In this document: positions 11-31,920 of the stretch, one piece after another
Numbering within the stretch: position 1 is the first letter of the stretch
Layout of the letters: each line of letters starts with the position of its first letter
Source of the DNA: Acaryochloris thomasi RCC1774
GTDB lineage: Bacteria > Cyanobacteriota > Cyanobacteriia > Thermosynechococcales > Thermosynechococcaceae
Assembly (NCBI RefSeq): GCF_003231495.1
Contig: NZ_PQWO01000027.1
Span: forward strand, 19,854-51,853
DNA: 32,000 nt
Direction: 5' to 3'
Notes under the pieces: generated by a model
What the model saw: only the letters and a program-made list of their open reading frames with translations
What the model was told of the DNA's origin: nothing
Databases searched by the model: none
Position numbers and translations under genes: made by a program

Positions 11-2263
11 TTACGAATACTCAAGCTCCCTTAGGGCTTGATTCACCTCTTGTAGGTCAAAGGCTTTCGGGTCAAACTCGCTCCCAACCCATTCTTTCCG
101 TTCCCTGTGATCACTATGTCGGGGATTTTTCAGCACCTTCAACAAATGGGCATACCCCCAGTCCCCGCCACAGTCTTCCGGTGGACAAGCCTGCTTTCCG
201 GCCAGACACACTGGATAGGTTTTCTCAGGCTCACTTGCTAGCCTTTTTTCTACCTCGATTTCGTGCTGCCACATATCACCAAGGTTGTATAGGTAGGAGA
301 ATGAAAACAACTCATTCCCAATTAACTCCGCTAAGGTAAGAGTCTCATCCTCCTCGTCCTCATTGACCGAGAACTTGTGAAGATGGTAGCCCTCCCACCC
401 CATCGCAGCTTGTACCACTGGATGAAGTTGGGCCAGCGTCATGACCTCTGACACTTGAAGCCGCCGCCAGACCTTAGGCTGGACTCCCAAAAGCGTAATT
501 TTCAATTGATAGACGCTGGTTACATGGACTGCATCTAAAGAATCTTCTACAGCCGTAATTTTTGGACAGTCTAGCGGTTCCTCAGTAGAGGCCAGCTCCA
601 GTACTTGATCCACCATCTCCCACTCACAATTCACTTTGCAATTATCCAGCTCTGCGATCATCTCCATCCGCCAGAACATATCACCAATAATTTGCGATAT
701 TTCATCCTTCTCGTGATAGGTCAGAGTTAGCAAGTACTCATTACCCCGAGGTTTCGTCTTCTGGCCTTGAACATCGCTGAACACCTGCCGCTCAATCTCC
801 TTGCGGACCTTCGATTTTTTACGGCCTTCGACCCAGAGCTTGAAGCGCACCTGGGCCTGATGCTCAACGGCGGTGTCCCCATACCTTAAAGGCATCTGTA
901 GCTTAAGCCCAGACTCCAGATCAACTAGTGCAGTCTCAGGAGAATTAACCTCTTCCCTCTCCTGAGACTGTATATCTGGCGATTGTCCTTCTTCAGCAAC
1001 CTTCACACCAAACATTTCCGGCATACCGTAGGCCAGCTCAAGCATTTGCTCCAGCGCCTCAATGTTCTCCTGCCAAAGCTCTGCGAAAGTAATGTCCCCA
1101 TCATCAAACTCCACTTGGCCCAACGGTTCCTTTCCTGTCAACTGCACCAATCCCCCCAGCAGCTTCCGCTGCTTCCTATCTAAAGACTTTGCATACACCA
1201 ACTCCTTAGACTCTTCAATGGAGCGGTAATACGCCTCCACCGCAGCTTCCTGCTCCGCCCCCATCGTGTAGCGCCGAAACGATCTCTCGTCCGTGTGCCC
1301 CGTCAACCGCATCGCATGGGCCGGGTCCATGCCCTTCCGCAGCATCTCAGAAGCCCCCGTGTGCCGCAGCCGGTGGGGATGAATATCAGGAACCCCCGAG
1401 ATCTCCCCAATCGCCTCCACCATCTGATAGACCCCCTGGTAGGACAATCGCTGGCCGCCCCACCCGCGATGCTGAGAGAGAAACAGAGGAAAGTCAGGCT
1501 GCAGCTCCTCTCCCTGGTCTCGCCGCCAGTCTAAATACTCCGCTACCGCCTTCTGGCCCGCAGGGCTGAGGGGCACCAAGCGAGGCTGTTTATTCTTCGA
1601 TATCGGAATCGAGATCAGACGCCCATCAAACGATCCGACATTGGTGGCCACCACCTCTCCGGATCGCATCCCACTGGCCAGCAAGTGCAGCAATGCCAGA
1701 TCTCTCACTTGAGTACGCCCCCGCTGGACCACCGCCGCCCACACCTTCTCCATATTCTCAGCCGAGATATCCTGTGGCATCGGCACCGGCAACCGCTCGA
1801 ATTTGACCCCCTCAGTCGGGTTCTCCGGGCACAGCTCAGGATGAAACGTATTCAACCACCGAAAGAACGACTTGAGGGCCGTCAAAGCCGCATTGACGCT
1901 GCTCTTCGAGAGCGTTTTCCCCGGCTTAACCTCATGCTCCATCAAATAGGCTTTGTACTGCCCCAACTGCCGGAGCTTCAGCTCAGACCAAGCAGAGTGG
2001 GTCCAGCCCAAAAAACGCTTCAATTCACGCTCATAGAGCTTCCGAGAGTTGGCTGCTAGATTGCTCGCTCTCAGAAACTCCTGCACCACCGGCCAGCGGA
2101 TATCAGCAGGGGTCTCAATTTGCCGGGGCCGTCCCTGCCGTTGCCTCGATTCGGGCCTCTCCTCCGCCACCGGGATGGCCACCACCATTACTGGGGGAAT
2201 TGACTTCGGAGCGATCGCCATCTCGTTACCTCGCGGACCTTCTATAATAGTGGCATATTTCAA
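11..2263 (-). CDS. Tyrosine recombinase (phage-integrase family) fused to a C-terminal pRiA4b ORF-3-like (PF07929 / MM3350-like) domain
   Basis: 750-aa ORF. The N-terminal half carries integrase hallmarks: SGMRSGE, HPHRLRHTGAS and GHTDERSFRRYT, giving the R..HxxR..H..Y pattern. The last ~190 aa match the pRiA4b ORF-3 family signature: YQLKITLLGVQPKVWRRLQV, LAQLHPVVQAAMGWEGYHLHKF, CLAGKQACPPEDCGGDWGY and FDPKAFDL. The track start at 2263 is TTG; an in-frame ATG at 2221 is an alternative start. Confidence 0.8.
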   Translation of the reverse strand: MKYATIIEGPRGNEMAIAPKSIPPVMVVAIPVAEERPESRQRQGRPRQIETPADIRWPVVQEFLRASNLAANSRKLYERELKRFLGWTHSAWSELKLRQLGQYKAYLMEHEVKPGKTLSKSSVNAALTALKSFFRWLNTFHPELCPENPTEGVKFERLPVPMPQDISAENMEKVWAAVVQRGRTQVRDLALLHLLASGMRSGEVVATNVGSFDGRLISIPISKNKQPRLVPLSPAGQKAVAEYLDWRRDQGEELQPDFPLFLSQHRGWGGQRLSYQGVYQMVEAIGEISGVPDIHPHRLRHTGASEMLRKGMDPAHAMRLTGHTDERSFRRYTMGAEQEAAVEAYYRSIEESKELVYAKSLDRKQRKLLGGLVQLTGKEPLGQVEFDDGDITFAELWQENIEALEQMLELAYGMPEMFGVKVAEEGQSPDIQSQEREEVNSPETALVDLESGLKLQMPLRYGDTAVEHQAQVRFKLWVEGRKKSKVRKEIERQVFSDVQGQKTKPRGNEYLLTLTYHEKDEISQIIGDMFWRMEMIAELDNCKVNCEWEMVDQVLELASTEEPLDCPKITAVEDSLDAVHVTSVYQLKITLLGVQPKVWRRLQVSEVMTLAQLHPVVQAAMGWEGYHLHKFSVNEDEEDETLTLAELIGNELFSFSYLYNLGDMWQHEIEVEKRLASEPEKTYPVCLAGKQACPPEDCGGDWGYAHLLKVLKNPRHSDHRERKEWVGSEFDPKAFDLQEVNQALRELEYS

Positions 2264-2289
2264 TAATAAATATTGGGCTAATATCTTAG

Positions 2290-2307
2290 CTATGACTAAA
2301 CTATGAC
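2290..2307. repeat. Direct repeat CTATGAC x2 with 11-bp period in the recombinase/hicA divergent intergenic region
   Basis: CTATGAC occurs at 2290-2296 and again at 2301-2307, read directly from the sequence. A second tandem repeat, AATCTAA x2, lies at about 2333-2346. Confidence 0.6.
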
Positions 2308-2364
2308 GAATAAGAGATGGTAAGATGATCTGAGAATCTAAAATCTAAGCAGCGAGAGGATTCG

Positions 2365-2580
2365 ATGCCCAAGAAGATTCGAGAGATCAAGGCTATGCTC
2401 AAGGAGGCTGGCTTCATTGTCCGGTCGGGAAAAGGGTCACACAATAACTGGAAGCATCCCCGGTTGCCCCAGGTGATCACGGTGGCTCGTAAGGATGGAG
2501 CCGATGCCCCCCGCTATCTGGAACGAAAGGTTTCTCAAGCCCTGCAGCAGTTGAAGGAGTTACCCGATGACGCAGACTAA
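2365..2580 (+). CDS. hicA: HicA-family type II toxin (mRNA interferase)
   Basis: 71 aa. IKAMLKEAGFIVRSGKGSHNNWKHP fits the HicA/YcfA pattern (GSH..W.HP). It overlaps the downstream hicB by 14 nt. Confidence 0.85.
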   Translation: MPKKIREIKAMLKEAGFIVRSGKGSHNNWKHPRLPQVITVARKDGADAPRYLERKVSQALQQLKELPDDAD

Positions 2581-2788
2581 GTATCGAATGATCATTGAAT
2601 GGTCAGATGAGGATTCTTGCTTTGTGGTGTCTCTGCCGGACTTTGAGCGGGTGACGCAGCCGGTGACGGATGGCACCACCTATGAAGCGGCAGCTCGGCA
2701 AGGGCAAGAAGCGATTGAGTCCTTAGTGGATTTCTATGAAGCTGAGGGGTGGACTTTGCCCGTCCCGCAGACGTTGCAGGTGGCCTAG
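2567..2788 (+). CDS. hicB: HicB-family antitoxin, N-terminal (UPF0150-like) domain only
   Basis: 73 aa. YRMIIEWSDEDSCFVVSLPDF...TDGTTYEAAARQGQEAIESLVDFYEAEGWTLPVP is typical of the HicB N-domain. No C-terminal RHH/HTH DNA-binding domain is visible. Confidence 0.8.
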   Translation: MTQTKYRMIIEWSDEDSCFVVSLPDFERVTQPVTDGTTYEAAARQGQEAIESLVDFYEAEGWTLPVPQTLQVA

Positions 2789-2792
2789 GACA

Positions 2793-3275
2793 ATGGCTCG
2801 GCCCCTGGCAGAGAAATGTCGGCGGTGTGCCAAGCTGTCGGTGACTGAAGCGAAGGAGAAGGACTGCTGGGCAGGGCAAGTCTGTCATGTTCGTCGTCAT
2901 GGGTACCGGAATCGCGATCGCTACAACAAGCAGAAGAAAAAGCAGTATGCCATTGCAACCGGCAAGATCATTCCAGAGATCACGGTGGCTGTACCTGCGA
3001 CTCCGGCTGCGATTCTGCATCTGTATCGAGTGAGGGTGGATGCACCCCTCCATGCGATCGCCGCTGAACTGTGGATCGGGCAACAGCAGGTTGCGAAAGT
3101 TGAACCTGTGCATTGCCTGGGGTGGACAGGAATGCAAGTGAAACAGTATTCGCGGGAGGTACTGAAAGGCTTTTCAGGTCAGCTTGAGGATGTTGTGCTG
3201 GACCGCTTTGAAACAACGGTGGAGTTGAATCCAAACCAGTGCCCGATCCGTCCATGTCCTCTCCACCCTGAGTAA
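2793..3275 (+). CDS. Hypothetical protein with an N-terminal Cys cluster (CxxC-x12-Cx5C) and a basic stretch
   Basis: The ATG at 2793 lies 4 nt after the hicB stop; the track ORF 2736..3275 overlaps hicB, so I prefer the ATG. Sequence begins MARPLAEKCRRCAKLSVTEAKEKDCWAGQVCH, followed by RRHGYRNRDRYNKQKKKQY. I recognise no family. Confidence 0.55.
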   Translation: MARPLAEKCRRCAKLSVTEAKEKDCWAGQVCHVRRHGYRNRDRYNKQKKKQYAIATGKIIPEITVAVPATPAAILHLYRVRVDAPLHAIAAELWIGQQQVAKVEPVHCLGWTGMQVKQYSREVLKGFSGQLEDVVLDRFETTVELNPNQCPIRPCPLHPE

Positions 3276-3280
3276 TATTA

Positions 3281-3922
3281 ATGAGTGTTATTCAGCTAGA
3301 ACTCGATCTTTGGCAGCAGCTTGCCGTAGCTGAGGAATACCCTGAGCAGACTAACGTTGAGCAGTTGTGCTTAGGGTTAGATCTGATGCTGACTCAGGTG
3401 TCTCCTAAGCGGCAGTTAGAGATGGCTGGGGAAGCCTTTCTACAGATTGCTGAAGTCTTCAATCGTCGAGCGGATATGCTGCTCAATGATTGGAAGCAGG
3501 CTCACAGTGAGGAGGGGCCGGTGCTGGACTTGGGAGAGCTAGAGGTGCTGGTCCGTCAGTCGATGGTGTTTGATCTCGATGAATTGTTCGCTGAGCCTGA
3601 GCTTGTCACTAGGCGCACTTTCCCAAAAGAGGAAGGGGACTCTGTGGTTGCGATCGTGGAGAAAGAGGTGTTGCTTCAGGAGCTGGAGTTGCAGCAGCCG
3701 GAAGAGGTATTTGCTGTGATTGAGGAGGAAAACGTGGCGGCTTGGGTGGATGCGATCGCACAACGATTGCGGGCCAGGGGAGGTAGTGACTCTGCGATCG
3801 CACTGCAGCAGCACCTAGAGTTGTCTTGGGGACGGTTATGGCTGGGACTGCTGCTTGGTGGGTTCGAGTTGGAGAGCGATCGCTTTTACAGTCGGGAAAT
3901 TGAAGTGAGCTGTGTACGTTGA
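3281..3922 (+). CDS. ScpA-like kleisin (short, acidic)
   Basis: 213 aa, starting 5 nt after the upstream stop. The N-terminus LELDLW...(38 aa)...LEMAGEAFLQIAEVFNRRADMLL has the same spacing as B. subtilis ScpA GPLDLL...LDIASEYLVMAATLLSIKSRMLL. The C-terminus AIAQRL..IALQQHL..RLWLGLLLGGFELESDRFYSREIEV resembles the ScpA C-terminal winged helix (..VVTFLAILEL...IIEQE.NFSDIYI; cyanobacterial ..FWALLLLS...VEL.QEEFY.DL.I). Confidence 0.5.
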   Translation: MSVIQLELDLWQQLAVAEEYPEQTNVEQLCLGLDLMLTQVSPKRQLEMAGEAFLQIAEVFNRRADMLLNDWKQAHSEEGPVLDLGELEVLVRQSMVFDLDELFAEPELVTRRTFPKEEGDSVVAIVEKEVLLQELELQQPEEVFAVIEEENVAAWVDAIAQRLRARGGSDSAIALQQHLELSWGRLWLGLLLGGFELESDRFYSREIEVSCVR

Positions 3923-4299
3923 CAAATCTCAAAAAAATCGAAGCATTGCTCAATCCTCTGGATACATCATCTACCGAGTGCGATGGTATGACTCGCTTAT
4001 GCCATACTGTTCTCTCCAGAGAGTCGATAGAACACAGTGTTTACATCGGTTCATGTCGGGTAGAAAGCCAGGAAATTCCGCTTCACTTCTGGATAGAGCT
4101 GCTGGGGGAACACAAGGGGTACATCGTTGATTATCGTTTAGGGATGTGGATGCGCGATGTTGTGATTCAGGTTCCTCACGGGATATTCAAGGCCGACACA
4201 TTCCGTCACGTCAGTTACCAGGGTGAGGCAATCGACATTCCCTATTTGCCAGAGCCACTCTTTCAGATTTTGTCGATGAGCGCTCCGCTTATCCAGTGA
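3919..4299 (+). CDS. Hypothetical protein with a transglutaminase/papain-like Cys-His-Asp spacing
   Basis: 126 aa. The TTG start overlaps the upstream stop (TTGA). ECDGMTRLCHTVL..(35 aa C to H)..PLHFWIELLGEHKGYIVDYR resembles the transglutaminase-core pattern G.C...(~35-45)...H.W.E...(~15)...D. Confidence 0.4.
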   Translation: MTNLKKIEALLNPLDTSSTECDGMTRLCHTVLSRESIEHSVYIGSCRVESQEIPLHFWIELLGEHKGYIVDYRLGMWMRDVVIQVPHGIFKADTFRHVSYQGEAIDIPYLPEPLFQILSMSAPLIQ

Positions 4300-4300
4300 T

Positions 4301-4486
4301 GTGGGAGGAGATGCGATCGCACAAAGGCTAGCAGCCACCGAGAATGGTAGTGACTCTCTCGTCGCATTGCAGAAGCACCTAAAGCTATCCTGGGGGCGGC
4401 TGTGGTTGGGGCTATTGCTAGGGGGCTTTGTGTTGGAGTCGGATGGTGAGCACTTTTATGGTGGTGGGATCACTATCCGTTTCTGA
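4301..4486 (+). CDS. Second, diverged copy of the kleisin C-terminal winged-helix segment, either stand-alone or separated from the 126-aa ORF by a frameshift
   Basis: 61 aa. DAIAQRL...GSDSLVALQKHLKLSWGRLWLGLLLGGFVLESDGEHFYGGGITI parallels residues ~155-210 of the 3281..3922 product. Most conserved codons differ synonymously between the two copies. The only start in this frame is GTG at 4301, 1 nt after the upstream TGA, with no obvious SD. Confidence 0.4.
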   Translation: MGGDAIAQRLAATENGSDSLVALQKHLKLSWGRLWLGLLLGGFVLESDGEHFYGGGITIRF

Positions 4487-7979: not shown

Positions 7980-8719
7980 AATTTAGGACTCAATTTTTTG
8001 ATTGTAGGCCATAAATGAACCAAACTGTGATTTTGAATACCATAGAGGTGAACAAAGTTTTACCCAAGGTTTTTATACTACTAAGTAATTTCAAGCAAAA
8101 GAGCAGAACTTTTAACCTACAATTCAGTAATTTGATGGGTTAACTGGATGTGATGCTTTTCTCATTTACATGCACTATAAAAATGAAGTCTTAGCATAGA
8201 AGTATTTTTGGCGATTTCCATTAATGTCTTCTTATATAAGAATTCAACTATCCATTGAACGTTGAAATGACTAAACTTGGTAGTTGAATTAAGCACTTGT
8301 ATAGAGAATGGCGCGATATCGCAGATTGGGTGGTCTATGGCCGCTACCTGGAAAACCTGAAACTCTCTTTGGATAAAGGGTATAGGCTATTGCTAAAAAG
8401 TGTGGTCTCGATTGAATAATCCCTAAAAAAGTAATACATGTTACACTTAGAGCACGCATAAGTTCCAACAGAAGTTCAGCTAGGATCTGAGCTTTTCGCT
8501 TCAATACACACATTACTTTCGCTAACCAAAGAATTTACTAGATTGTGCAGTCTTGACTGCGTGACTTCTCGGAAATCATACGAAGACTAAATTTCAGGCA
8601 GCGCAGTGCCTGTGAGTTTATTTCGAGAAAAATGTAAATCAACTCTAAATCGTATCGAGGCTTAGCAAGCTCAACAAGTCTCTTGAGAATTTAAAAGACA
8701 ATTGTAAAGGTTTAATTGC

Positions 8720-9841
8720 ATGCCATTCGTTAAAGAAACGGCTTTAGTTTATTGCGAGAATCAGTTTGGCTTAGTAGACGGGAAAACGGCTTCAGGGTTA
8801 GTTCGGCACTCTGACACGTATACCATCGTTGGCGTTATTGATAGTACTTTGGCGGGAAGAGACGCTGGGGAAGAGTTAGGCGATCGCGAAAACGGCATTC
8901 CTATTTTTGCCAACTTAGATGAAGCTTTGGGCCAGCTACGAGACGTTCCGAACTGCTATATCTATGGGAAAGCCCCCTTAGATGCCTGTATCTCAATGGT
9001 GGAAAGGTTCTTGATTTTTGAAGCGATGTCCAAGGGCATGAATATCATCAACGGTTTGCACCAGTTTTTCTCTGAAGATCCTGAGTTTGTTCGTATGGCT
9101 GAGCAACACGGTATTCAAATTAAAGATATTAGAAAACCACCTCAGCTTCAAGATCTGCACGTCTTCACTGGTCAAATCTTTAGAGTCAATGTGCCTGTGA
9201 TTGCTGTCCTCGGTACAGATTGCGCCTGCGGGAAAATGACCACTGCAGTGGAGCTGAATCAAGCCTTAAACAGGCTAGGAATAAAGTCTGTTATGGTGGC
9301 GACCGGGCAAACAGGTTTGATGCAGGGGGCAAAATATGGGGCCTCCATTGATGCGCTCGTATCTCAATTTGTGATTGGTGAAATAGAAAATGCTGTGGTG
9401 CAGACGTTTGATCATGAAGACCCCGATATTATTCTCGTGGAAGGTCAAAGTGCCGTCGGTCATCCTGCTTTTATGAGTTCCGTCGGTATTTTGAAGGGCT
9501 GTATGCCCGATGGTGTGATTCTCCAGCATCCACCAGCCCGAAAGTTTCGGTGCGATTTTCCCCACCTAGCGATGCCCACCCTAGAGAGTGAAATTCAACT
9601 GATCGAATCGATCTCTCAATCTCAGGTGCTCGCCATCACGATCAGCCATGAAAACATGAACGAGATAGAAACTCAGAGCGTGATTGCAGAGTATGAAAAC
9701 CACTTTCGATTACCCACGACAGATGTGCTCAATGATGGGTGTCAAAAACTGATTCAGGCTTTAGGCCAGCATTTTCCACAACTGAATCAAAAAATTAAGC
9801 TGGAGGGGTTAGAAAAGGTTTTGCAGTTGGCAATGGGGTAA
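8720..9841 (+). CDS. DUF1611 domain protein (DgcN-like family)
   Basis: 373 aa. The N-terminus GKTASGLVRHSDTYTIVGVIDSTLAGRDAGE and the P-loop-like VLGTDCACGKMTTAVEL are typical of DUF1611. Confidence 0.8.
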   Translation: MPFVKETALVYCENQFGLVDGKTASGLVRHSDTYTIVGVIDSTLAGRDAGEELGDRENGIPIFANLDEALGQLRDVPNCYIYGKAPLDACISMVERFLIFEAMSKGMNIINGLHQFFSEDPEFVRMAEQHGIQIKDIRKPPQLQDLHVFTGQIFRVNVPVIAVLGTDCACGKMTTAVELNQALNRLGIKSVMVATGQTGLMQGAKYGASIDALVSQFVIGEIENAVVQTFDHEDPDIILVEGQSAVGHPAFMSSVGILKGCMPDGVILQHPPARKFRCDFPHLAMPTLESEIQLIESISQSQVLAITISHENMNEIETQSVIAEYENHFRLPTTDVLNDGCQKLIQALGQHFPQLNQKIKLEGLEKVLQLAMG

Positions 9842-11513: not shown

Positions 11514-12071
11514 ATGAATTTACTAAATCATTCTGAGAATCAAGATGTGAACGCTCAAGAAATGTTACGCCTGTATAGTGAAGGAAAACGAGATTTTAGC
11601 CACGTAAGTCTTGTTAAAGTATGTCTGACAAATGCCAATCTAATTGGTGCACACTTGACTGGAGCACACTTGGTTGAAGCAAATCTACAAGGGTCAAACC
11701 TCACCAAAGCGCATCTGGCTCAAGCCAAGATGAATCAGTCCAAGCTTTCCGATACAGAAATGATCAACGCATGCTTGATTGATGCAGAAATGATTGATTC
11801 TGACCTGAGTGGAGCAGATTTGAGGCAAGCTGATCTCAGTGGAGCAGACTTGAGTGGTGCTAATTTAGGAGGAGCAGACTTGAGAGGAAGCATCTTGCGG
11901 GATGTAAATTTAAGTGGTGCAGACTTGAGAGGAGCCGATCTGACAGGGGTTAGTTTAAGCAAAACTAATCTCAGGGGTGCAGACTTAAAGGGAGCCTATA
12001 TAGATGAGTCAGAATTTCAAGAAGTAGAACGAAGGGAATTAGGTAACTCCAACTTGTCTATATCCGTATAG
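11514..12071 (+). CDS. Pentapeptide-repeat protein
   Basis: 185 aa with continuous A(D/N)LxG-type pentads, for example ADLSGADLSGANLGGADLRGS. Confidence 0.9.
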   Translation: MNLLNHSENQDVNAQEMLRLYSEGKRDFSHVSLVKVCLTNANLIGAHLTGAHLVEANLQGSNLTKAHLAQAKMNQSKLSDTEMINACLIDAEMIDSDLSGADLRQADLSGADLSGANLGGADLRGSILRDVNLSGADLRGADLTGVSLSKTNLRGADLKGAYIDESEFQEVERRELGNSNLSISV

Positions 12072-12238
12072 ATACCAAAGAGCCTAATGTCTATCTTAAT
12101 AGAAAAAATCTCATTTATGCTAATCCTGCCGATGCAATTTTAGTCGGTACAAATCTGACAGACACCAAAATCAAAAAAACAAACTTAGTGAATATCCGCT
12201 GGAATGATGTCGACTTGAATGATGTTTCTCTAAGTTAG
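12047..12238 (+). pseudogene. Out-of-frame pentapeptide-like tail downstream of the pentapeptide gene (possible frameshift remnant)
   Basis: The frame is open from 12047 to the TAG at 12236-12238. It encodes ..NLIYANPADAILVGTNLTDTKIKKTNLVNIRWNDVDLNDVSLS with no in-frame start codon. Confidence 0.3.
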
Positions 12239-12428
12239 GCTTGTCGAACATTCTAAACGTCTAAATCTTATTGATATTGGTTGGGTGAGCAAAGATTTTC
12301 TAGGGCAATGGCTAATTGTCTTCTATCTCTGTATGCCGGCTATCCAATTTGGATAACCTGACAAAAATATAGTGTACTGAGCATCAATATGGACGAAGAC
12401 AGCAATATATCTAAGAAGAGGTGACTAT

Positions 12429-17772: not shown

Positions 17773-18633
17773 ATGCCTCAACCCCAACGGTGGAATGAGA
17801 TTCCCACGCAATTGACCACAGAGCAGTTTGAAACATTTGTCTTGCCCTATCTGCCCACAGGTCGTCGGGGACCGCAGCCGAAGCTCTCCTTGCACACGAT
17901 TTTCAACTATATTCTGAAGCTGCTCTATCTGGGGTGTCAATGGAAGGAACTACCCATCGAAAAAGACAAAGATGGGATGCCAGAGATTCACTATTCAAAC
18001 ATCTATCGGGCCTTTCGACGATTTGAAACTCACGGCTGCTTCGATGATATTTTTGCTGGCTCTGTTGGTGTGCTGAACAAGAAAGGTCATCTCGATACCA
18101 GTGTCATTCATGGCGATGGCACAACAACCGCAGCCAAGAAGGGTGGCGATAATCTGGGGTTCAGCGGGCATAAACATATGAAGGGCGACAAAGTGGTGGC
18201 CTTCTGTGACCGCAACTGCAATGTCATTTCTCCCTTTGTCGCTGCCCCTGGCAATCGCAACGAATCCCCTCTGTTTTTGGAAGCGCTGCCCCTGGTGATG
18301 GGTATTGCTCGGCAGGTCGGTCTCGACCTCAAAAAGACGATTGTCAGTCTGGATGGGGCTTACGACAGCCGTTCCAACCGGAAAGCGATTTTCAATCGGG
18401 GCATGATCCCGAATATCAATGAAAACCCAAGGGGCAGAAAGACTCCAAAACGAGGTCGCAAACGATTCTTCATACCGGCTCTATTCCAAGAACGGTTTTT
18501 CACTATCGAACGAGTGTTTGGCTGGGAGGACAAATTCAAGCGCTTGTTGCTCCGCTTTGAGAGGATCAGTCAGTTACACTACGCCTTGAAGAGTCTGGCC
18601 TATACGATGATCAACCTCCGACATTTCTGCTAA
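17773..18633 (+). CDS. DDE transposase, IS4/IS5 family (DUF4096-like N-terminus plus DDE_Tnp_1)
   Basis: 286 aa. It has LSLHTIFNYILKLLYLGCQWKELP, then HGDGTTTAAKKGG, SLDGAYDS and FTIERVFGWEDKFKRLLLRFE, which supply the D, D and E residues. Confidence 0.9.
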   Translation: MPQPQRWNEIPTQLTTEQFETFVLPYLPTGRRGPQPKLSLHTIFNYILKLLYLGCQWKELPIEKDKDGMPEIHYSNIYRAFRRFETHGCFDDIFAGSVGVLNKKGHLDTSVIHGDGTTTAAKKGGDNLGFSGHKHMKGDKVVAFCDRNCNVISPFVAAPGNRNESPLFLEALPLVMGIARQVGLDLKKTIVSLDGAYDSRSNRKAIFNRGMIPNINENPRGRKTPKRGRKRFFIPALFQERFFTIERVFGWEDKFKRLLLRFERISQLHYALKSLAYTMINLRHFC

Positions 18634-21959: not shown

Positions 21960-22814
21960 GTGAAAACTGATTCGATTTTCTATACGATTTTCAAAACTGA
22001 CCCCGGAATTTTATTCGAGCTTCTAGGTCAGCCATCGACTTTAGCCACAGGATACGAGTTCCGTTCCGTTGAAATCAAGCAGCTTGCCTTCAGGATAGAT
22101 GGCCTCTTCCTACCGAGACTAGATGCACCAGACCAGACCGTTATCTTCCTAGAAAACCAGTTTCAGCCAGATCCAGAGTTTTACCATCGATTTTTTGGCG
22201 AAATCATTACCTACCTCAAGCAGTACCCCAGCACAGCCGATTGGCAGGCGGTGGTTATCTTCCCAGAGCGAAAGATTGAGCCGGATGATGCTCATCTGTA
22301 CCGAGCGCTCCTCAACAGTGATCAGGTCTACCGTCTTTACCTTGAAGACCTTGCCGATGTCACGACTGACTCAATTGGGATTGGCTTGATGCAATTAATT
22401 ATTGCCGATTCAGTGGAAGCTGCCTCTAAAGCACGATCATTGCTATCGAGAGCAAAAGCTCAGGGGCGGACAGATCCTCAAATGCCTGCGATAATGGAGC
22501 TGATAGAGACTATTGTGATCTACAAATTCCCTCAATTAGAACGAGCGGAGATAGAGCGTATGTTGGGCTTAAGCGATCTCAAAGAAACAAAGGTCTACCA
22601 AGAAGCCGTGCAGGAAGGTCAACAAAAAGGACGCCTCGAAGAAAGCCAGTCCCTCGTCCTGCGTCAGCTCACTCGCCGCCTTGGTGAGATTCCACCAGAG
22701 TTGCGATCTCAAATAGAAGGGTTGTCGCTGGAGCAAACCGAGGCATTGGGTGAGGCGCTGCTGGACTTTACGGAACAGGGGGACTTGGTGGAATGGCTGG
22801 AAGGCAATCGGTAG
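21960..22814 (+). CDS. Rpn/YhgA-like PD-(D/E)XK recombination-promoting nuclease (cyanobacterial DUF2887-type N-terminus, DUF4351 C-terminus)
   Basis: 284 aa. The N-terminus reads MKTDSIFYTIFKTDPGILFELL, followed by RIDGLF and IFLENQFQ (the D...ExQ core). The C-terminus reads LVLRQLTRRLGEIPPELRSQIEGLSLEQTEALGEALLDFTEQGDLVEWL. Confidence 0.75.
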   Translation: MKTDSIFYTIFKTDPGILFELLGQPSTLATGYEFRSVEIKQLAFRIDGLFLPRLDAPDQTVIFLENQFQPDPEFYHRFFGEIITYLKQYPSTADWQAVVIFPERKIEPDDAHLYRALLNSDQVYRLYLEDLADVTTDSIGIGLMQLIIADSVEAASKARSLLSRAKAQGRTDPQMPAIMELIETIVIYKFPQLERAEIERMLGLSDLKETKVYQEAVQEGQQKGRLEESQSLVLRQLTRRLGEIPPELRSQIEGLSLEQTEALGEALLDFTEQGDLVEWLEGNR

Positions 22815-22984: not shown

Positions 22985-24247
22985 TTATACTTTGGCTTTT
23001 GTCGTATCCCGTGTTGCTCTCTTTCTCGGTGTTTTTGCCTTGGCTTTGGTAGATGTTTTCGCTTTAGATGCCGCTGGCTTTCGCCCTCTCTTTGGCTTTT
23101 GGGCTGCGTTGGGAGTATCAGTGGGAGCTGGAGTGCTTTCTGCTATTGCTTCAACCACAAGGTCCGGTTGGAGTTTCGGAGCTTTAGATTTTCGCCCTGG
23201 ACTTTTAGGCTTTGCCTCTTTGGCAGCGGGAACGACTTGATAGCTCAATGGTGCAGATGCTTTCTGCCACTTGTTGGTTTTAACGCCCCGGTGTAATGCA
23301 GTTGTCATCCTTCTGCGTTCAACTTTGAGATCTTCACTGCTGAGGTCGCCGTAGAGCCACTGAATGATCGCGTCCCGGTGAACCGCTTTCCCTTCCCGTT
23401 GTTCTAAGACAGAAACAATCGCTTCATTCTTTTTCATTTCTTGGTAGGGAGGCTGTAGCTCAAGAACGCTGTTAGCCTTTGCAGTTGCTGTCTCTCGCTT
23501 TGCCTTGGGTGCTTTTGCCTTTGCCCTATTCTTAGTCGTTGCCCCTGGCTTTTGGTTGGAGACTTTCGACTTTGCAACCGTCTTTGCTGCTGTTGTGCGG
23601 GGGGCGGGTGATACTTTCTGACTGCCTTGCTTTTTACGTTTGTTTGTTGCCCCTTTGATCTGGTAGCTAGAAGGTTTTCTTCCCTTCTGCCATAACTTAT
23701 TCTTCTCTCCCTGGTACAAGAGCGTTTTCAGCCGCTTCGACTCAGCTCTATGGTCTACTGCGCTCAAGGTGCCAAAGAGTTCTTGGGTCAGGGCATCAGC
23801 TGTGACCGCTTGACCCTGGTGAGCTAGCAACACTGTGGTGATTGCCTCCAGTCGCGTCAGCTCTTGATAAGCAGGCAGCATTGTCCGTGGGCTACTTCGA
23901 CCGCTTTTTGCTGGGGTTGGTTCGGGTGCGGCTGTTGTCTCCAAGGTTTCACTTGGGGGTGCAGCGGTTTCTGGATCGCTTTGGGTCGGAGCTAGGTCTA
24001 AGCTATCAGTGGGAGCATTAGCTTGAGGACTCAAGAATAGCCCAGGGGAGGGCGTTTCAATACGTTCTTGTAGAGGTGCCACACCATGAGTCGGGACAAG
24101 CTGATTGAGCAGCAATGCATCAACGTGTTCAAGTTGCTCTCTGAGGTTGGCGACCTTCGCATCGGCTTCGGATAACTCTTGTTCAAAGTGAGACTTGAGG
24201 GTGATGAGGTAGTCGATAGGAGAGGAATCTGGAGTGGCTGAGGACAT
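22985..24247 (-). CDS. Lys/Ala/Pro-rich DNA-binding-like protein with two internal HARE-HTH-like repeats and a histone-H1-like tail
   Basis: 420 aa. Two homologous ~75-aa modules are present: LPAYQELTRLEAITTVLLAHQGQAVTADALTQELFG...KNKLWQKGRKPSSYQI and QPPYQEMKKNEAIVSVLEQREGKAVHRDAIIQWLYG...KTNKWQKASAPLSYQV. They are separated and followed by AKxK/PKxK-rich low-complexity sequence. Confidence 0.55.
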   Translation of the reverse strand: MSSATPDSSPIDYLITLKSHFEQELSEADAKVANLREQLEHVDALLLNQLVPTHGVAPLQERIETPSPGLFLSPQANAPTDSLDLAPTQSDPETAAPPSETLETTAAPEPTPAKSGRSSPRTMLPAYQELTRLEAITTVLLAHQGQAVTADALTQELFGTLSAVDHRAESKRLKTLLYQGEKNKLWQKGRKPSSYQIKGATNKRKKQGSQKVSPAPRTTAAKTVAKSKVSNQKPGATTKNRAKAKAPKAKRETATAKANSVLELQPPYQEMKKNEAIVSVLEQREGKAVHRDAIIQWLYGDLSSEDLKVERRRMTTALHRGVKTNKWQKASAPLSYQVVPAAKEAKPKSPGRKSKAPKLQPDLVVEAIAESTPAPTDTPNAAQKPKRGRKPAASKAKTSTKAKAKTPRKRATRDTTKAKV

Positions 24248-24902: not shown

Positions 24903-25025
24903 GGGGAAGTGTACTCAGAGTTGCGATCGCAGATAAAGGAGTTGTCTCTCAAGCAGACGGAAGAGTTGGGAGAGGCGCTGTTTTCGGAACAGGGTGATCT
25001 GTGGGAGTGGTTGGAGAGGAGTTAA
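24903..25025 (+). pseudogene. Orphan DUF4351 C-terminal remnant of a second Rpn-like gene
   Basis: GEVYSELRSQIKELSLKQTEELGEALFSEQGDLWEWLERS parallels the last ~45 aa of the 21960..22814 product, and the DNA is also similar. The upstream part of the same frame has no Rpn similarity. Confidence 0.6.
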
Positions 25026-26269
25026 CGTCGCAACTGCTTGCTCACCATCTTGCGGGAAAAGCTAATGTTCACCGATGCCTGCTCTGACCAATCCTGTACC
25101 AATCGGTAAAACAAGTTGCGATCGCCCGACTGCAGTACAGCCACTTGATCAGCGGTCTCAATCGTATAGGGATATCCACCCCCGATAATGACCTCGCCCC
25201 GGACATAGTTGAGGATGCGCTCAAAATGCCCCTCATCATAAATCCAGCGTGGGAACTCCAGACGCACGGGCGCATTGCCGTTGGTCTTCATATACAGGAA
25301 GGCAATCGCATCTGCCTGTTCTTCATATAGGCTCAAAATGCCCTGACTTCTGGCATCGCCTGTGCGATCGCAGATAAAGACTGGGGTGCGATCGCCCCAG
25401 TTCATCTCATTGCCCAGGAGCTGAGCATCGTTGAGGAGTGTTGTTTCTGGTAATACCTCCAGACATCTAAGCATCTGCACGATGTCGCAGGCTTGGGAGG
25501 TATCAATGTAGCCGACCACTGGGACTTTGTACTTCTCACTGGCTCTAAGTAGCGCGACTATTTGTTTGGCGTAGAAGAGCTTGCATTCAAAGTCGGAAGC
25601 TTCGGCAAAAGTGGCGACCAGTGAGCCATCAAAGAAAACTAGGCAATCATCACAGCTAGGATGACTCTCCATGAATTCAATGATGCGCTCTACTTCCATC
25701 TGAAAGCGCCGCATACTCACCTGACGATTGAGGGTGCGCTCGTTCTCTAGATCGAGTTGAGCGGGCGTCATCAGAGCCAAGCGATTGTCCTTTTGATATT
25801 CGCCTGTTTCTGAATGAGGGTTTGCAAACCAACCGATTTGCACCAAGGCGATAGGAGGAGAAACGTCTTTGCTAGGAAAGATTTGAGAGCCATCGACGGC
25901 AAAGGTGGTCACTCCTGTGAGGACATCTCGGACCCATTGCAAACTCCGTTCTCTGTTGGCCCACTTTAGCTTGGAGCGAATTAACCAGTTCTTTGACTCA
26001 CTAGGCGGTAGAGGTTCGAGGGGACGCGCACCAGGATGCTCGTAGTCTGTCAGGAGATTTGTTATGTCTGTATCGGTTTGGGCTGAGACCTTCTTGAGGG
26101 CACGGCGGTAGTCTCTGTAGATCTCGGAGGCGTTGCTAGAAAAGTCTGTAAATTCGGCTTGAGATTGTCCCAAAGCCTGCAGTAGTTCAGAGGGCTTGAG
26201 CGGCATGGCTGCGGTTTCCCTGGGAGTTGCTCCTGCTGGAAGTATTGCAGGTACCAGCTTTAATGGCAA
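25022..26269 (-). CDS. NurA-domain-like nuclease
   Basis: 415 aa. FAVDGSQIFP, VFFDGSLV, GYIDTS and GGGYPYTIETADQVAVL resemble NurA motifs (DGS, DGSL, YPY..AD..A). The track start at 26269 is TTG; the in-frame ATG at 26206 is more likely. No HerA-like ATPase is adjacent. Confidence 0.5.
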   Translation of the reverse strand: MPLKLVPAILPAGATPRETAAMPLKPSELLQALGQSQAEFTDFSSNASEIYRDYRRALKKVSAQTDTDITNLLTDYEHPGARPLEPLPPSESKNWLIRSKLKWANRERSLQWVRDVLTGVTTFAVDGSQIFPSKDVSPPIALVQIGWFANPHSETGEYQKDNRLALMTPAQLDLENERTLNRQVSMRRFQMEVERIIEFMESHPSCDDCLVFFDGSLVATFAEASDFECKLFYAKQIVALLRASEKYKVPVVGYIDTSQACDIVQMLRCLEVLPETTLLNDAQLLGNEMNWGDRTPVFICDRTGDARSQGILSLYEEQADAIAFLYMKTNGNAPVRLEFPRWIYDEGHFERILNYVRGEVIIGGGYPYTIETADQVAVLQSGDRNLFYRLVQDWSEQASVNISFSRKMVSKQLRR

Positions 26270-30056: not shown

Positions 30057-31130
30057 GTGGTAATGGAGAGGTTAATGAACAATAGAAATGAATATACTCT
30101 GTATTCTCCAAGGTATTCATTGAGTGAAAGAGCAAAGCAAACATCATCAATATTAAGAGCGAGTTCAGTTGTTGCTTATCATTTGTTAAGAGGCTCCAAG
30201 GAAAAGTTTGCTGCATCAGTTGAAATAACGGACAAATGCAATGCAGGATGTAGTTTCTGTTATGTATATCCATCTGAATGGGATCAAAATGAAAGGCTTG
30301 GAGGATACCTCCAATTATCTCCTAGTGAGCACAAACTTAAGGAGAAAAATGTCTATGAAACTTTAAGAAGGCTAAAGAGTAGAGGCGTCGTTCATGTAAC
30401 ATTAGTTGGTGGAGAGACTGCGCTTGCACCTAAGGCTATTCGTCTAGCATCAAAATTATTCCCTGTCGTTTGGGTAGTAACAAATGGAGTAGTGAAGCTT
30501 CCAAGATTGCCTAACTCAGTCACTGTCTTTGTTAGTATCGATGGCCCTCCAGATTATCATAATAAATCTAGAGATCCCAAAGGATTTTACAAAAACTATT
30601 CCTACAATAATCTACAGGGAATGAGTGCAAATATTGTCCGTAATATTAATGAATCTGAAAGAGGAGCATATGTTCATATTACCCTCTCAAAGCCAGTTAT
30701 TAAAAAGTTTTCTGATACTGTTGATTGGTTGGTAAAGGATGTTAGGAAATTACGTGGAATCATAGTATCAGGCACAGCAACTAAAGATTTTGAGGATCCT
30801 TGCACTTTTTCCATTGAGGATCGCAAGGATTTGAAGAAATTAATTGAAAGTGCTGCAGAGAAATATGGATGGAAATTATTTCCATTTAACCAGCCGAAAG
30901 TTAATGAACGCCTTTTTGATGAAAAGTATATTATAAGTAATTCATCGAGTTGCTCTGTTGCGCAGCGAGTAGAGAGCCTTAACTATGATGGTAGTAATGT
31001 CGGTAAATGTGTATTGAGAGATGATACTTTATGTGAAACATGTGTCTGCAATATTTCCGGTTTAGCGCAGGCTATTAATCTGGTTGATATAAGAACAATA
31101 TCGGGAGTTTTGCGTGCGACTTATGGCTAG
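30057..31130 (+). CDS. Radical SAM protein with a C-terminal SPASM/twitch-like Cys cluster
   Basis: 357 aa. It has CNAGCSFCY (CxxxCxxC), the LVGGETAL GGE-like motif, and C-terminal CSVAQRVESLNYDGSNVGKC followed by CETCVC. Possible starts are GTG 30057, ATG 30063 and ATG 30075. Confidence 0.85.
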   Translation: MVMERLMNNRNEYTLYSPRYSLSERAKQTSSILRASSVVAYHLLRGSKEKFAASVEITDKCNAGCSFCYVYPSEWDQNERLGGYLQLSPSEHKLKEKNVYETLRRLKSRGVVHVTLVGGETALAPKAIRLASKLFPVVWVVTNGVVKLPRLPNSVTVFVSIDGPPDYHNKSRDPKGFYKNYSYNNLQGMSANIVRNINESERGAYVHITLSKPVIKKFSDTVDWLVKDVRKLRGIIVSGTATKDFEDPCTFSIEDRKDLKKLIESAAEKYGWKLFPFNQPKVNERLFDEKYIISNSSSCSVAQRVESLNYDGSNVGKCVLRDDTLCETCVCNISGLAQAINLVDIRTISGVLRATYG

Positions 31131-31920
31131 CTATAGAAATGAGTCTTTGCGGATATACCGTAGAATTTTCTGTCTTTTGACTTTCCATATTTCTACTCTA
31201 ATTATTTCTCCAGCTTCGGCCCAGATTGTTCCTGATTCTACGCTTGGAAATAATTCGTCGATCGTGCAGAAACGTCAGAATACTAATGGGAATTCATCTT
31301 CTCTTATCACGGGTGGAAGTAGAAGTGGCTCAAATCTTCTACATAGTTTTAATGAATTTAATGTTGGGGAGGGGCAGTCTGTATTTTTTGATAACCCGTC
31401 AGCGATAAACACAATTATTTCTAGAGTGACAGGAAATAATACAACACGAATTTTAGGCTTGTTGGGTGTACGGGGGACAGCTAGACTATTTTTGCTAAAT
31501 TCTAATGGTATTTTCTTTGGTTCCAATGCAGCAATTAGTTTGAACAATTCTTTTTTAGTTAGTACAGCTAATAGAATTGGATTTCTGGATGATTCATCTT
31601 TATTTACAAGACCACCCTTAAATAGTACTGAAGTATTAAGTCGTAGTCGTCCTTCTAGACTTATCTTTGACTCTAGAACGGGACCTATTAGGGTTAAGGG
31701 CTTAGGCAATAATCTTTCTGATCTTGCCGTAATGCCTATTGATAATCCTATTATCTTTCCTTTTGGGCTTTCGGTATCTCCAGATAGTACTATTGCTTTG
31801 ATTGGAGGTAACGTAGAGTTTGATAGTGGTGTCCTGAGGTCATTTGGTGGAAATATTGAGATTGGAGGTGTTCGGGGTCATGCCGACATACGCCTAATTT
31901 TTCTCACAGGATCCCTGTAA
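31123..31920 (+). CDS. Filamentous-hemagglutinin N-terminal (TPS/haemagg_act) domain protein, unusually short
   Basis: A signal peptide (..ISPASAQ) is followed by IVPDSTLGNNSSIV...ITGGSRSGSNLLHSFNEFNV..GQSVFFDNP..INTIISRVTG...LFLLNSNGIFFG. The ATG at 31123 overlaps the radical SAM stop (ATGGCTAG). The ORF stops at 31920, about 265 aa. Confidence 0.8.
   Translation: MASYRNESLRIYRRIFCLLTFHISTLIISPASAQIVPDSTLGNNSSIVQKRQNTNGNSSSLITGGSRSGSNLLHSFNEFNVGEGQSVFFDNPSAINTIISRVTGNNTTRILGLLGVRGTARLFLLNSNGIFFGSNAAISLNNSFLVSTANRIGFLDDSSLFTRPPLNSTEVLSRSRPSRLIFDSRTGPIRVKGLGNNLSDLAVMPIDNPIIFPFGLSVSPDSTIALIGGNVEFDSGVLRSFGGNIEIGGVRGHADIRLIFLTGSL

Follow-up and report, generated by a model that had tools for sequence, protein, structure and literature searches.

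Which of the genes that follow a toxin-antitoxin pair on a contig of the cyanobacterium Acaryochloris thomasi RCC1774 belong together, and what might they do? The window, as we call the whole stretch of 32,000 nucleotides analysed here (contig NZ_PQWO01000027.1, positions 19,854 to 51,853), contains six open reading frames (ORFs) on its plus strand, hicA, hicB and ORF3 to ORF6, at positions 2365-4486. The original prediction, made from the sequence alone, had taken all six for one system that includes an ScpA-like kleisin. As a set of six they are not conserved. We compared all against all 13 loci that contain a relative of ORF4: the pair ORF3 (2793..3275, plus strand) and ORF4 (3281..3922, plus strand) was found in 12 of them, HicAB in three and ORF5 in three. 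The conserved unit is ORF3-ORF4, and the HicAB-headed array of six is a local arrangement. Together with an Xer-like recombinase, encoded in the window divergently from the cluster (11..2263, minus strand), the pair defines a three-gene module of the plasmid backbone, present on about 70-80 complete plasmids: the recombinase, a basic protein rich in Cys and His, and an acidic winged-helix protein that is a putative adaptor.

The gene pair and its recombinase on cyanobacterial plasmids

ORF3 lies directly upstream of ORF4 in all 12 loci that have both; the thirteenth is broken by insertion sequence (IS) elements. In a metagenomic protein of 466 residues (P0281), an ORF3-like region, with its α/β domain duplicated and its Cys-rich N-terminal segment truncated, is fused to a full ORF4-like one. 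Because of this Rosetta-stone evidence, we take ORF3 and ORF4 to function together.

By tblastn against 72,556 plasmids, ORF3 is found on 79 and ORF4 on 72 complete plasmids, all of them cyanobacterial. The hosts are Nostoc (24), Acaryochloris (18-20), Leptolyngbya, Pseudanabaena, Calothrix, Chroococcidiopsis, Stanieria and others, and the module spans Nostocales, Acaryochloridales, Pseudanabaenales, Pleurocapsales, Leptolyngbya and Chroococcidiopsis. Most matched plasmids carry one copy of ORF3-ORF4 and some two or three modules; eight plasmids of Acaryochloris marina MBIC11017 (pREB1 to pREB8) have the pair. Neither the 50,697 phage records searched nor IMG/VR contained a match to ORF3 or ORF4. 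A search for related loci with single proteins returned only two close contigs of metagenome-assembled genomes, and none among viral contigs; look-ups of two A. thomasi paralogues (P0004 and P0005) gave no match.

The catalytic part of the window recombinase is found on 71 plasmids, with a genus profile near-identical to that of ORF3 and ORF4. Cross-tabulating coordinates among the matches listed (40 for ORF4, 60 for the recombinase), we found ORF3 directly adjoining ORF4 in 31 of the 40 and the recombinase within 1 kb of ORF3 or ORF4 in 34 of the 60. On every Nostocales plasmid among these matches, the genes follow the order recombinase-ORF3-ORF4 and either overlap or stand a few nucleotides apart. 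An example is the operon of Nostoc pCC7120alpha (65,165-67,335), with the recombinase at 65,165-66,193, ORF3 at 66,197-66,664 and ORF4 at 66,661-67,335. Among the 13 compared loci, nine have a tyrosine recombinase and four have ParA/ParB. The mobile-element or plasmid context and the link to a recombinase, both of which had been foreseen, are borne out, and the recombinase link is the strongest signal.

The recombinase portion of the window protein has about 370 residues and is fused at its C-terminus to a pRiA4b ORF-3-like domain (Pfam Phage_integrase PF00589, E = 1.5e-22; PRiA4_ORF3, 4e-58). Its N-terminal domain is SAM-like (PF13495, PF02899), and its true start is probably the ATG at 2221. 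In the alignment, R187, R200, H297, R300, H323 and Y332 are invariant, including a C-terminal HxxR motif and tyrosine of the catalytic type. NCBIfam models recognize it as XerC/XerD-like with scores under the equivalog cut-offs, hence it falls outside XerC and XerD proper. The integrases encoded just ahead of ORF3-ORF4 on Nostocales plasmids share 50% identity with it. A fusion of the identical type occurs on A. marina pREB2 (locus L027, 1386-3350, minus strand); the partner recombinases of Nostocales, Stanieria and Pseudanabaena have no PRiA4_ORF3 domain.

The module adjoins parAB or parM in Nostoc pCC7120alpha, Anabaena cylindrica, Pseudanabaena ABRG5-3 and one metagenomic plasmid. In Nostoc, Anabaena and Pseudanabaena it stands beside parM and/or parAB and an AAA ATPase gene; on the metagenomic plasmid (L004) the pair is divergent from parAB, with no recombinase nearby. 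The types of flanking toxin-antitoxin genes vary (HicAB, VapBC, YhaV, PIN/Phd, MNT/HEPN, RES). What lies upstream of ORF3 depends on the locus: it may be the recombinase itself, a 112-aa gene, a RES toxin, PIN/Phd, VapBC or YhaV, or MNT/HEPN together with a 187-aa gene. A. marina pREB2 holds two modules (L026 and L027), each made of a recombinase, a NACHT gene, ORF3, ORF4 and toxin-antitoxin pairs.

Some neighbours recur or stand out. In both pREB2 modules, the NACHT NTPase gene sits between the recombinase and ORF3-ORF4. On a Pseudanabaena plasmid (L009), the pair is flanked by unannotated 1250-aa and 704-aa genes and by a DUF4007 gene. In Nostocales, genes for a conserved hypothetical protein of 124 aa and an HNH endonuclease are found directly upstream of the operon (L013, 4605-5405; L017, 3511-4308), with a gene for an AAA ATPase (about 520 aa) in the vicinity. 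These Nostocales genes may be part of the same backbone island.

A proposed accessory role in plasmid maintenance

ORF3 is the obligate partner of ORF4 and represents a conserved family, with 63 matches of about 160-190 residues. Its start is placed at 2793 and not at the mechanical 2736, since 35 homologues begin at the MAR... methionine. The protein is basic (pI 9.35) with eight conserved Cys/His, in agreement with the Cys-rich basic product originally described. An N-terminal CxxC...C...C segment is followed in the alignment by invariant H87, H107 and C150 and by near-invariant C155. In the AlphaFold model (pLDDT 88), the Cys segment leads to a long basic helix and then to a β-β-β-α-β domain that contains H87, H107, C150 and C155. 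ORF3 is presumed to bind zinc and nucleic acid. It has no match in Pfam, NCBIfam or PADLOC, and a profile search of PDB sequences returned nothing significant. Foldseek searches with the model gave no match at E ≤ 1e-3 in the PDB or BFVD, only weak RNase-H-like and RT-connection ones. The aligned members, scanned singly (n = 35), showed a faint DUF7808 match in five and no other recurrent family.

ORF4 has 213 residues, is acidic (pI 4.27) and is identical (100%) to C1752_08966 of A. thomasi RCC1774, on a contig of 51.9 kb. Its family gives 105 matches in a word-indexed search and 769 clusters at 50% identity, nearly all of 205-260 residues; every named match is cyanobacterial. When the members of its alignment were scanned singly, no curated family recurred. 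The AlphaFold model has a mean pLDDT of 79 and exceeds 90 in both domains. The N-terminal domain (1-76) consists of three helices (3-19, 26-37 and 42-76), the third of them long. The linker (77-150) is of low confidence or disordered, and it is acidic with a conserved GP...VRQSM..D motif. The C-terminal domain (150-213) is a winged helix, whose third helix carries the hydrophobic, almost invariant WLGLLLGGF. Synonymous positions in these codons vary freely, which places the conservation at the protein level; a DNA site hidden in this coding sequence was rejected on the same ground. Given the hydrophobic third helix and the pI, the winged helix is more likely to bind protein than DNA.

Searches of a literature library by accession and by topic found no description of ORF3-ORF4. 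Neither protein has a curated family, a solved relative or a paper in that library.

Gene linkage, the P0281 fusion, the location in the backbone and an occurrence of about one per replicon speak for a plasmid maintenance module that has the recombinase at its centre. The charges of the two proteins and their metal-site features are compatible with it. As is expected of multimer resolution, the plasmid backbone carries the recombinase close to partition genes, with about one to a replicon. We tentatively propose, as the best reading but as possible rather than probable, that ORF3-ORF4 is the accessory pair of a recombinase/stability module of the plasmid backbone, most likely one for multimer resolution.

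From the observed linkage we infer the mechanistic steps that follow. The window would hold the Acaryochloris version of a maintenance module of large plasmids, an Xer-like recombinase with two co-translated partners. ORF3 would bind DNA at or near the recombinase site. ORF4 would be an acidic adaptor that bridges ORF3 and the recombinase, or else two ORF3-DNA complexes, via its folded ends and the linker motif. The resulting complex would assemble or control the synapse, so as to resolve plasmid multimers or to confine recombination to the correct sites. Such a role can be likened to that of ArgR and PepA for Xer at cer, and possibly to that of ParB and ParC beside the resolvase in RK2 parCBA.

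Xer recombination at the plasmid sites cer and psi involves the accessory proteins ArgR/ArcA and PepA. The likeness consists in a tyrosine recombinase of the XerC/XerD type and in ORF3 and ORF4 as proposed architectural factors for resolution selectivity. Contrary to the cer system, whose recombinases and accessory proteins are host-encoded and moonlighting, all three components are here plasmid-encoded and clustered. Neither in sequence nor in fold are ORF3 and ORF4 related to ArgR or PepA; it is linkage only that suggests an accessory role for them.

In the par locus of RK2/RP4, the multimer-resolution operon parCBA is divergent from the parDE toxin-antitoxin pair. The window shares with it a backbone stability region in which a site-specific recombinase, two small accessory proteins and an adjacent toxin-antitoxin pair are laid out divergently. 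However, RK2 ParA is a serine recombinase, whereas that of the window is an Xer-like tyrosine recombinase, and ORF3 and ORF4 have no detectable similarity to RK2 ParB (a nuclease) or ParC. In addition, the toxin-antitoxin pair of the window is HicAB, in the same transcription unit as ORF3-ORF4.

Two elements lie between the divergent genes. The stretch from the recombinase start to hicA contains an imperfect inverted repeat at 2244..2284, with 17-nt arms (71% complementary) and a 7-nt spacer, as a candidate for the recombinase core site or for an operator. At 2290..2327 (plus strand), upstream of hicA, a block with two TGACTAA-type repeats is conserved at the corresponding intergenic positions in both A. 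marina pREB3 and Acaryochloris CCMEE 5410. Judging from this conservation, it is likely the promoter/operator of the hicA-to-ORF4 transcription unit. A consensus sigma-70 scan did not call the block, and a promoter/terminator scan counted no more sites than in shuffles.

Several findings weigh against an accessory role in recombination. The inverted repeat, which is the sole candidate recombination site, is not conserved in pREB3 or CCMEE 5410. When inverted repeats near recombinase genes were compared between modules, none was conserved and no recombination site was found. Four of the 13 loci have no recombinase within 6-8 kb, and more than 10 kb separate the pair from its best-matching recombinase on some plasmids of Acaryochloris and Pseudanabaena. 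The recombinase of the pREB3 pair is 27% identical to that of the window, while ORF3 (about 63%) and ORF4 (about 48%) are far closer. The partnership is therefore not strictly co-evolving; judged by these identities, ORF3-ORF4 is partnered with a recombinase of this general type. Profile and structure searches gave no fold or family match that would indicate a biochemical activity for ORF3 or ORF4. Finally, a role in replication or partition would account just as well for the nearby par genes and the single copy on each replicon.

ORF3-ORF4 could accordingly be a replicon-specific pair for replication initiation, copy control or partition, the latter as adaptors, and the recombinase merely a neighbouring resolvase in the same backbone island. 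We consider this unlikely, although some observations favour it. One diverged copy on most plasmids, with each large co-resident A. marina plasmid having its own, is the pattern of an incompatibility determinant. The pair adjoins parAB, parM and AAA ATPase genes, and at some loci, such as L004 with its divergent parAB, it has no recombinase nearby. Against this, both proteins are small, neither shows a domain of the helicase, primase or Rep type, the "recognition" helix of the acidic ORF4 is hydrophobic, and some plasmids carry two or three modules. The tight recombinase-ORF3-ORF4 operon of all Nostocales among the matches listed argues for a shared function.

The comparison with known replication proteins points the same way. 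The first Rep proteins for large cyanobacterial plasmids were reported recently (PMC10899382). Those demonstrated, CyRepA and CyRepX, have helicase-type DEXDc domains or resemble them in structure (PMC10899382). ORF3 and ORF4 lack such a domain and are unrelated to these helicase-like proteins.

Little is understood about the maintenance of large cyanobacterial plasmids (100-500 kb). A recombinase module with ORF3-ORF4 as its accessory pair would be relevant to plasmid stability, to the coexistence of nine plasmids per Acaryochloris cell and to the design of stable cyanobacterial vectors. The pCC7120alpha orthologues in Nostoc PCC 7120 are a genetically tractable target.

ORF4, the kleisins and a possible defence role

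The original prediction likened both ends of ORF4 to the SMC-binding ends of ScpA. A kleisin-like layout is indeed visible in the AlphaFold model; significant support from profile, hhalign or Foldseek searches is missing. ORF4 resembles ScpA (PF02616) in size (213 against about 250 residues) and in its predicted layout, a helical N-terminal domain, a flexible acidic linker with a motif and a C-terminal winged helix with a hydrophobic third helix. Unlike ScpA, it has no FEGPLDLLL-type N-terminal motif and no scpB or smc neighbour. Its partner is a Cys/His-rich α/β protein and, in its model, not a tandem winged-helix KITE; the gene is plasmid-borne and restricted to cyanobacteria.

Neither ORF4 nor 45 relatives match Pfam SMC_ScpA or NCBIfam ScpA, even at E ≤ 1. 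The JetA and MksF profiles of PADLOC likewise gave nothing at E ≤ 1, and no jetBCD or mksBEG genes are found as neighbours. A profile search of PDB sequences returned no match. With hhalign, we compared the ORF4 alignment with one of eight genuine ScpA sequences, which had been collected with a Bacillus subtilis ScpA query. The score was 15.3 (E = 0.23), as against 15.5 ± 2.7 for block-shuffled ScpA and 15.9 for an unrelated family. Sequence homology between ORF4 and ScpA was rejected, because the score equals that of the shuffled and unrelated-family controls.

The best Foldseek match of ORF4 in the PDB is the condensin kleisin Brn1 (7qen_C), at E = 0.076; none reaches 1e-3. The top 21 matches include the C-terminal domains of ScpA (5h66_C; target-normalised TM 0.66, rmsd 2.8, 69 columns) and of Scc1 (6qpq). 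Generic winged helices, such as those of MarR, Z-alpha and viral proteins, score at least as high as those of kleisins. Similarity to kleisins in profile and structure searches, the lack of which had been named beforehand as a refutation, is essentially absent statistically, and we do not assign ORF4 to the ScpA family. From its modelled shape, it may possibly work as a kleisin-type adaptor.

In the 15 inspected neighbourhoods that contain the pair, none of the genes called or annotated beside it encodes SMC, ScpB or KITE. The absence of such partners from the window had been noted earlier; those of its ORFs of at least 100 aa that were scanned against Pfam gave no SMC, ScpB, MukE, JetB or Jet/Mks match, and three of them had no match at all.

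ORF4 might still be a highly divergent kleisin or a mimic of one, with its N-terminal domain on the SMC neck, its winged helix on the SMC head cap and its linker bound to ORF3 instead of ScpB. The plasmid would in this way recruit or block the host Smc-ScpAB or Wadjet/Mks, for segregation or counter-defence. We regard this as improbable. The modelled layout and the hydrophobic helix speak in its favour, as do the rank of Brn1 with ScpA and Scc1 behind it, the parAB genes that often adjoin the module and the UniRef name of one Pseudanabaena homologue of ORF4, "Segregation/condensation protein A". They are set against the empty profile searches, hhalign scores at the level of the controls, generic winged helices that match equally or better, and a pair with no SMC, ScpB or KITE gene beside it. 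Should the kleisin-like shape be due to genuine kinship with kleisins or to mimicry, the finding would also matter for SMC biology and for how plasmids evade Wadjet.

A conceptual precedent for engaging a host SMC complex is the yeast 2-micron plasmid, whose partition proteins Rep1 and Rep2 recruit host cohesin and whose Flp recombinase amplifies the copy number via inverted repeats. It resembles the module in combining a plasmid tyrosine recombinase with two small maintenance proteins. Unlike the module, it is eukaryotic, and there is no homology between the two.

More doubtful still is a further extension, in which ORF4 is a genuine divergent kleisin that, with ORF3, tethers plasmids to an SMC-type complex or to their own recombinase, and in which ORF5 cleaves or processes ORF4 in the manner of separase in the Acaryochloris lineage. 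If true, ORF4 would be the first kleisin known to function with no SMC gene dedicated to it, and plasmid segregation or anti-Wadjet counter-defence would have a new principle.

Least probable of all is a toxin-antitoxin-like or anti-phage/anti-plasmid defence module placed in a defence and addiction island beside an integrase: many toxin-antitoxin pairs, NACHT NTPases, an HNH endonuclease and a DUF4007 gene are indeed neighbours, and ORF3-ORF4 is a translationally coupled operon of one basic and one acidic partner, but the pair has no PADLOC match and no detected toxin-like catalytic fold, is absent from phages, and occurs about once per large plasmid across many orders beside par genes, which is backbone-like and not patchy.

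HicAB, ORF5, ORF6 and the rest of the window

We checked all coordinates and junctions of the six ORFs; every one of them is exact, and the tight packing that had been described is real. The frames of hicA (2365..2580, plus strand) and hicB (2567..2788, plus strand) overlap by 14 nt. The hicB stop is separated from the ORF3 ATG at 2793 by 4 nt, and the end of ORF3 (3275) from the start of ORF4 (3281) by 5 nt. ORF5 begins with a TTG at 3919 and overlaps the end of ORF4 (3922) by TTGA; its own end at 4299 is followed after 1 nt by the GTG start of ORF6 at 4301. In scans of all six against Pfam, NCBIfam, PADLOC and PHROGs, the only matches are those of HicA and HicB.

The identity proposed for HicA is confirmed, and that proposed for HicB is probable. 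HicA (71 aa, with a GSH motif) matches Pfam HicA_toxin (PF07927) with 43.7 bits (cut-off 27; E = 3.1e-11) and phrog_353 (4.6e-11). HicB is a short form of 73 aa, which matches phrog_497 (5e-8) and, with 22.1 bits, under the cut-off of 27, PF15919 (E = 1.7e-4). The latter match is restricted to the N-terminal, HicA-binding half of the profile and stops at position 62 of 123; the C-terminal RHH/HTH DNA-binding domain is absent. A 73-aa gene of pREB3, syntenic, of equal length and clustered by BLASTP with the window hicB, is annotated as a HicB family antitoxin. On A. marina plasmids, HicB likewise has the 73-aa form without a DNA-binding domain. Autoregulation at the putative promoter block may need another protein, for which ORF3 is a candidate.

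The pair resembles type II HicAB systems in its overlapping hicA-hicB frames and the GSH motif of HicA. Unlike in those systems, HicB has no DNA-binding domain, unrelated genes follow after 4 nt, and other toxin-antitoxin types replace the pair in related modules. The three compared loci that have HicAB are all from Acaryochloris. HicAB is an Acaryochloris-specific add-on, not part of the module core. At the head of the transcription unit it would serve as an independent add-on for post-segregational killing, comparable to parDE beside parCBA.

ORF5 (3919..4299, plus strand) encodes 126 aa. Its TTG start is preferred over the 103-aa RefSeq call because the N-terminus is conserved in homologues. 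In 18 aligned sequences, an ECDGMT motif and the residues C21, H56 and D71 are invariant, and the order and spacing of Cys, His and Asp fit the transglutaminase/papain triad. The originally suggested link to this superfamily is otherwise faint, since Transglut_core3 is matched at E = 0.04 by two of the 18 members, among which no other family recurred. The best matches in a profile search of PDB sequences (E = 0.024) are leucine-rich-repeat proteins; this identity was rejected, as they stem from a "PxGxF" motif and are not significant. We keep ORF5 as a candidate transglutaminase/papain-like cysteine peptidase on the basis of its conserved residues. It lies downstream of ORF4 only in the window and in two other loci (L007 and L012), all close relatives, and is lineage-restricted accessory cargo.

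ORF6 (4301..4486, plus strand; 61 codons) is a remnant copy, in direct orientation, of the C-terminal winged helix of the ORF4 family, just as had been proposed: positions 4310-4438 are 74% identical in nucleotides to 3749-3874 of ORF4. In both copies, the duplication begins exactly at the HIP1 palindrome GCGATCGC (3748-3760 and 4309-4321); more HIP1 sites occur within ORF4 and ORF3. By its sequence, ORF6 is probably a pseudogene fragment, and it would be what recombination within the 3' portion of a gene of the ORF4 family has left behind.

Similar fragments are found elsewhere. In locus L003, an ORF4 3' fragment is 91% identical over 317 nt (8322-8638 against 12046-12350), with 3.4 kb in between that include a CcbP gene. 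Locus L012 has two such fragments (8434-8541 and 8575-8730), with ORF5 as intervening cargo as in the window. In all three cases the fragments are in direct orientation, downstream of the full copy and with cargo between. Split or short proteins of the ORF4 family exist as well (P0010, P0049 and P0060). Altogether, this suggests that the 3' region of ORF4 is a hotspot of insertion or recombination, or that paralogous modules recombine between plasmids. The ORF4 homologue of L012 (7317-7985) changes frame at a poly-G tract just before WLGLLLGGF; as it comes from a low-coverage long-read contig ("4x" in its name), the change is probably a sequencing error and not biology.

Further along the window, an IS4/IS5-type transposase (DUF4096 and DDE_Tnp_1) is encoded at 17773-18633 on the plus strand, and a DUF2887/DUF4351 protein at 21960-22814. 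A gene for a NurA-domain nuclease adjoins a 420-aa gene without Pfam match (25022-26269 and 22985-24247, both minus strand), which is possibly its HerA-like partner. Near the end of the window, an ORF with a TPS domain (two-partner secretion) occupies 31114-31920 on the plus strand.

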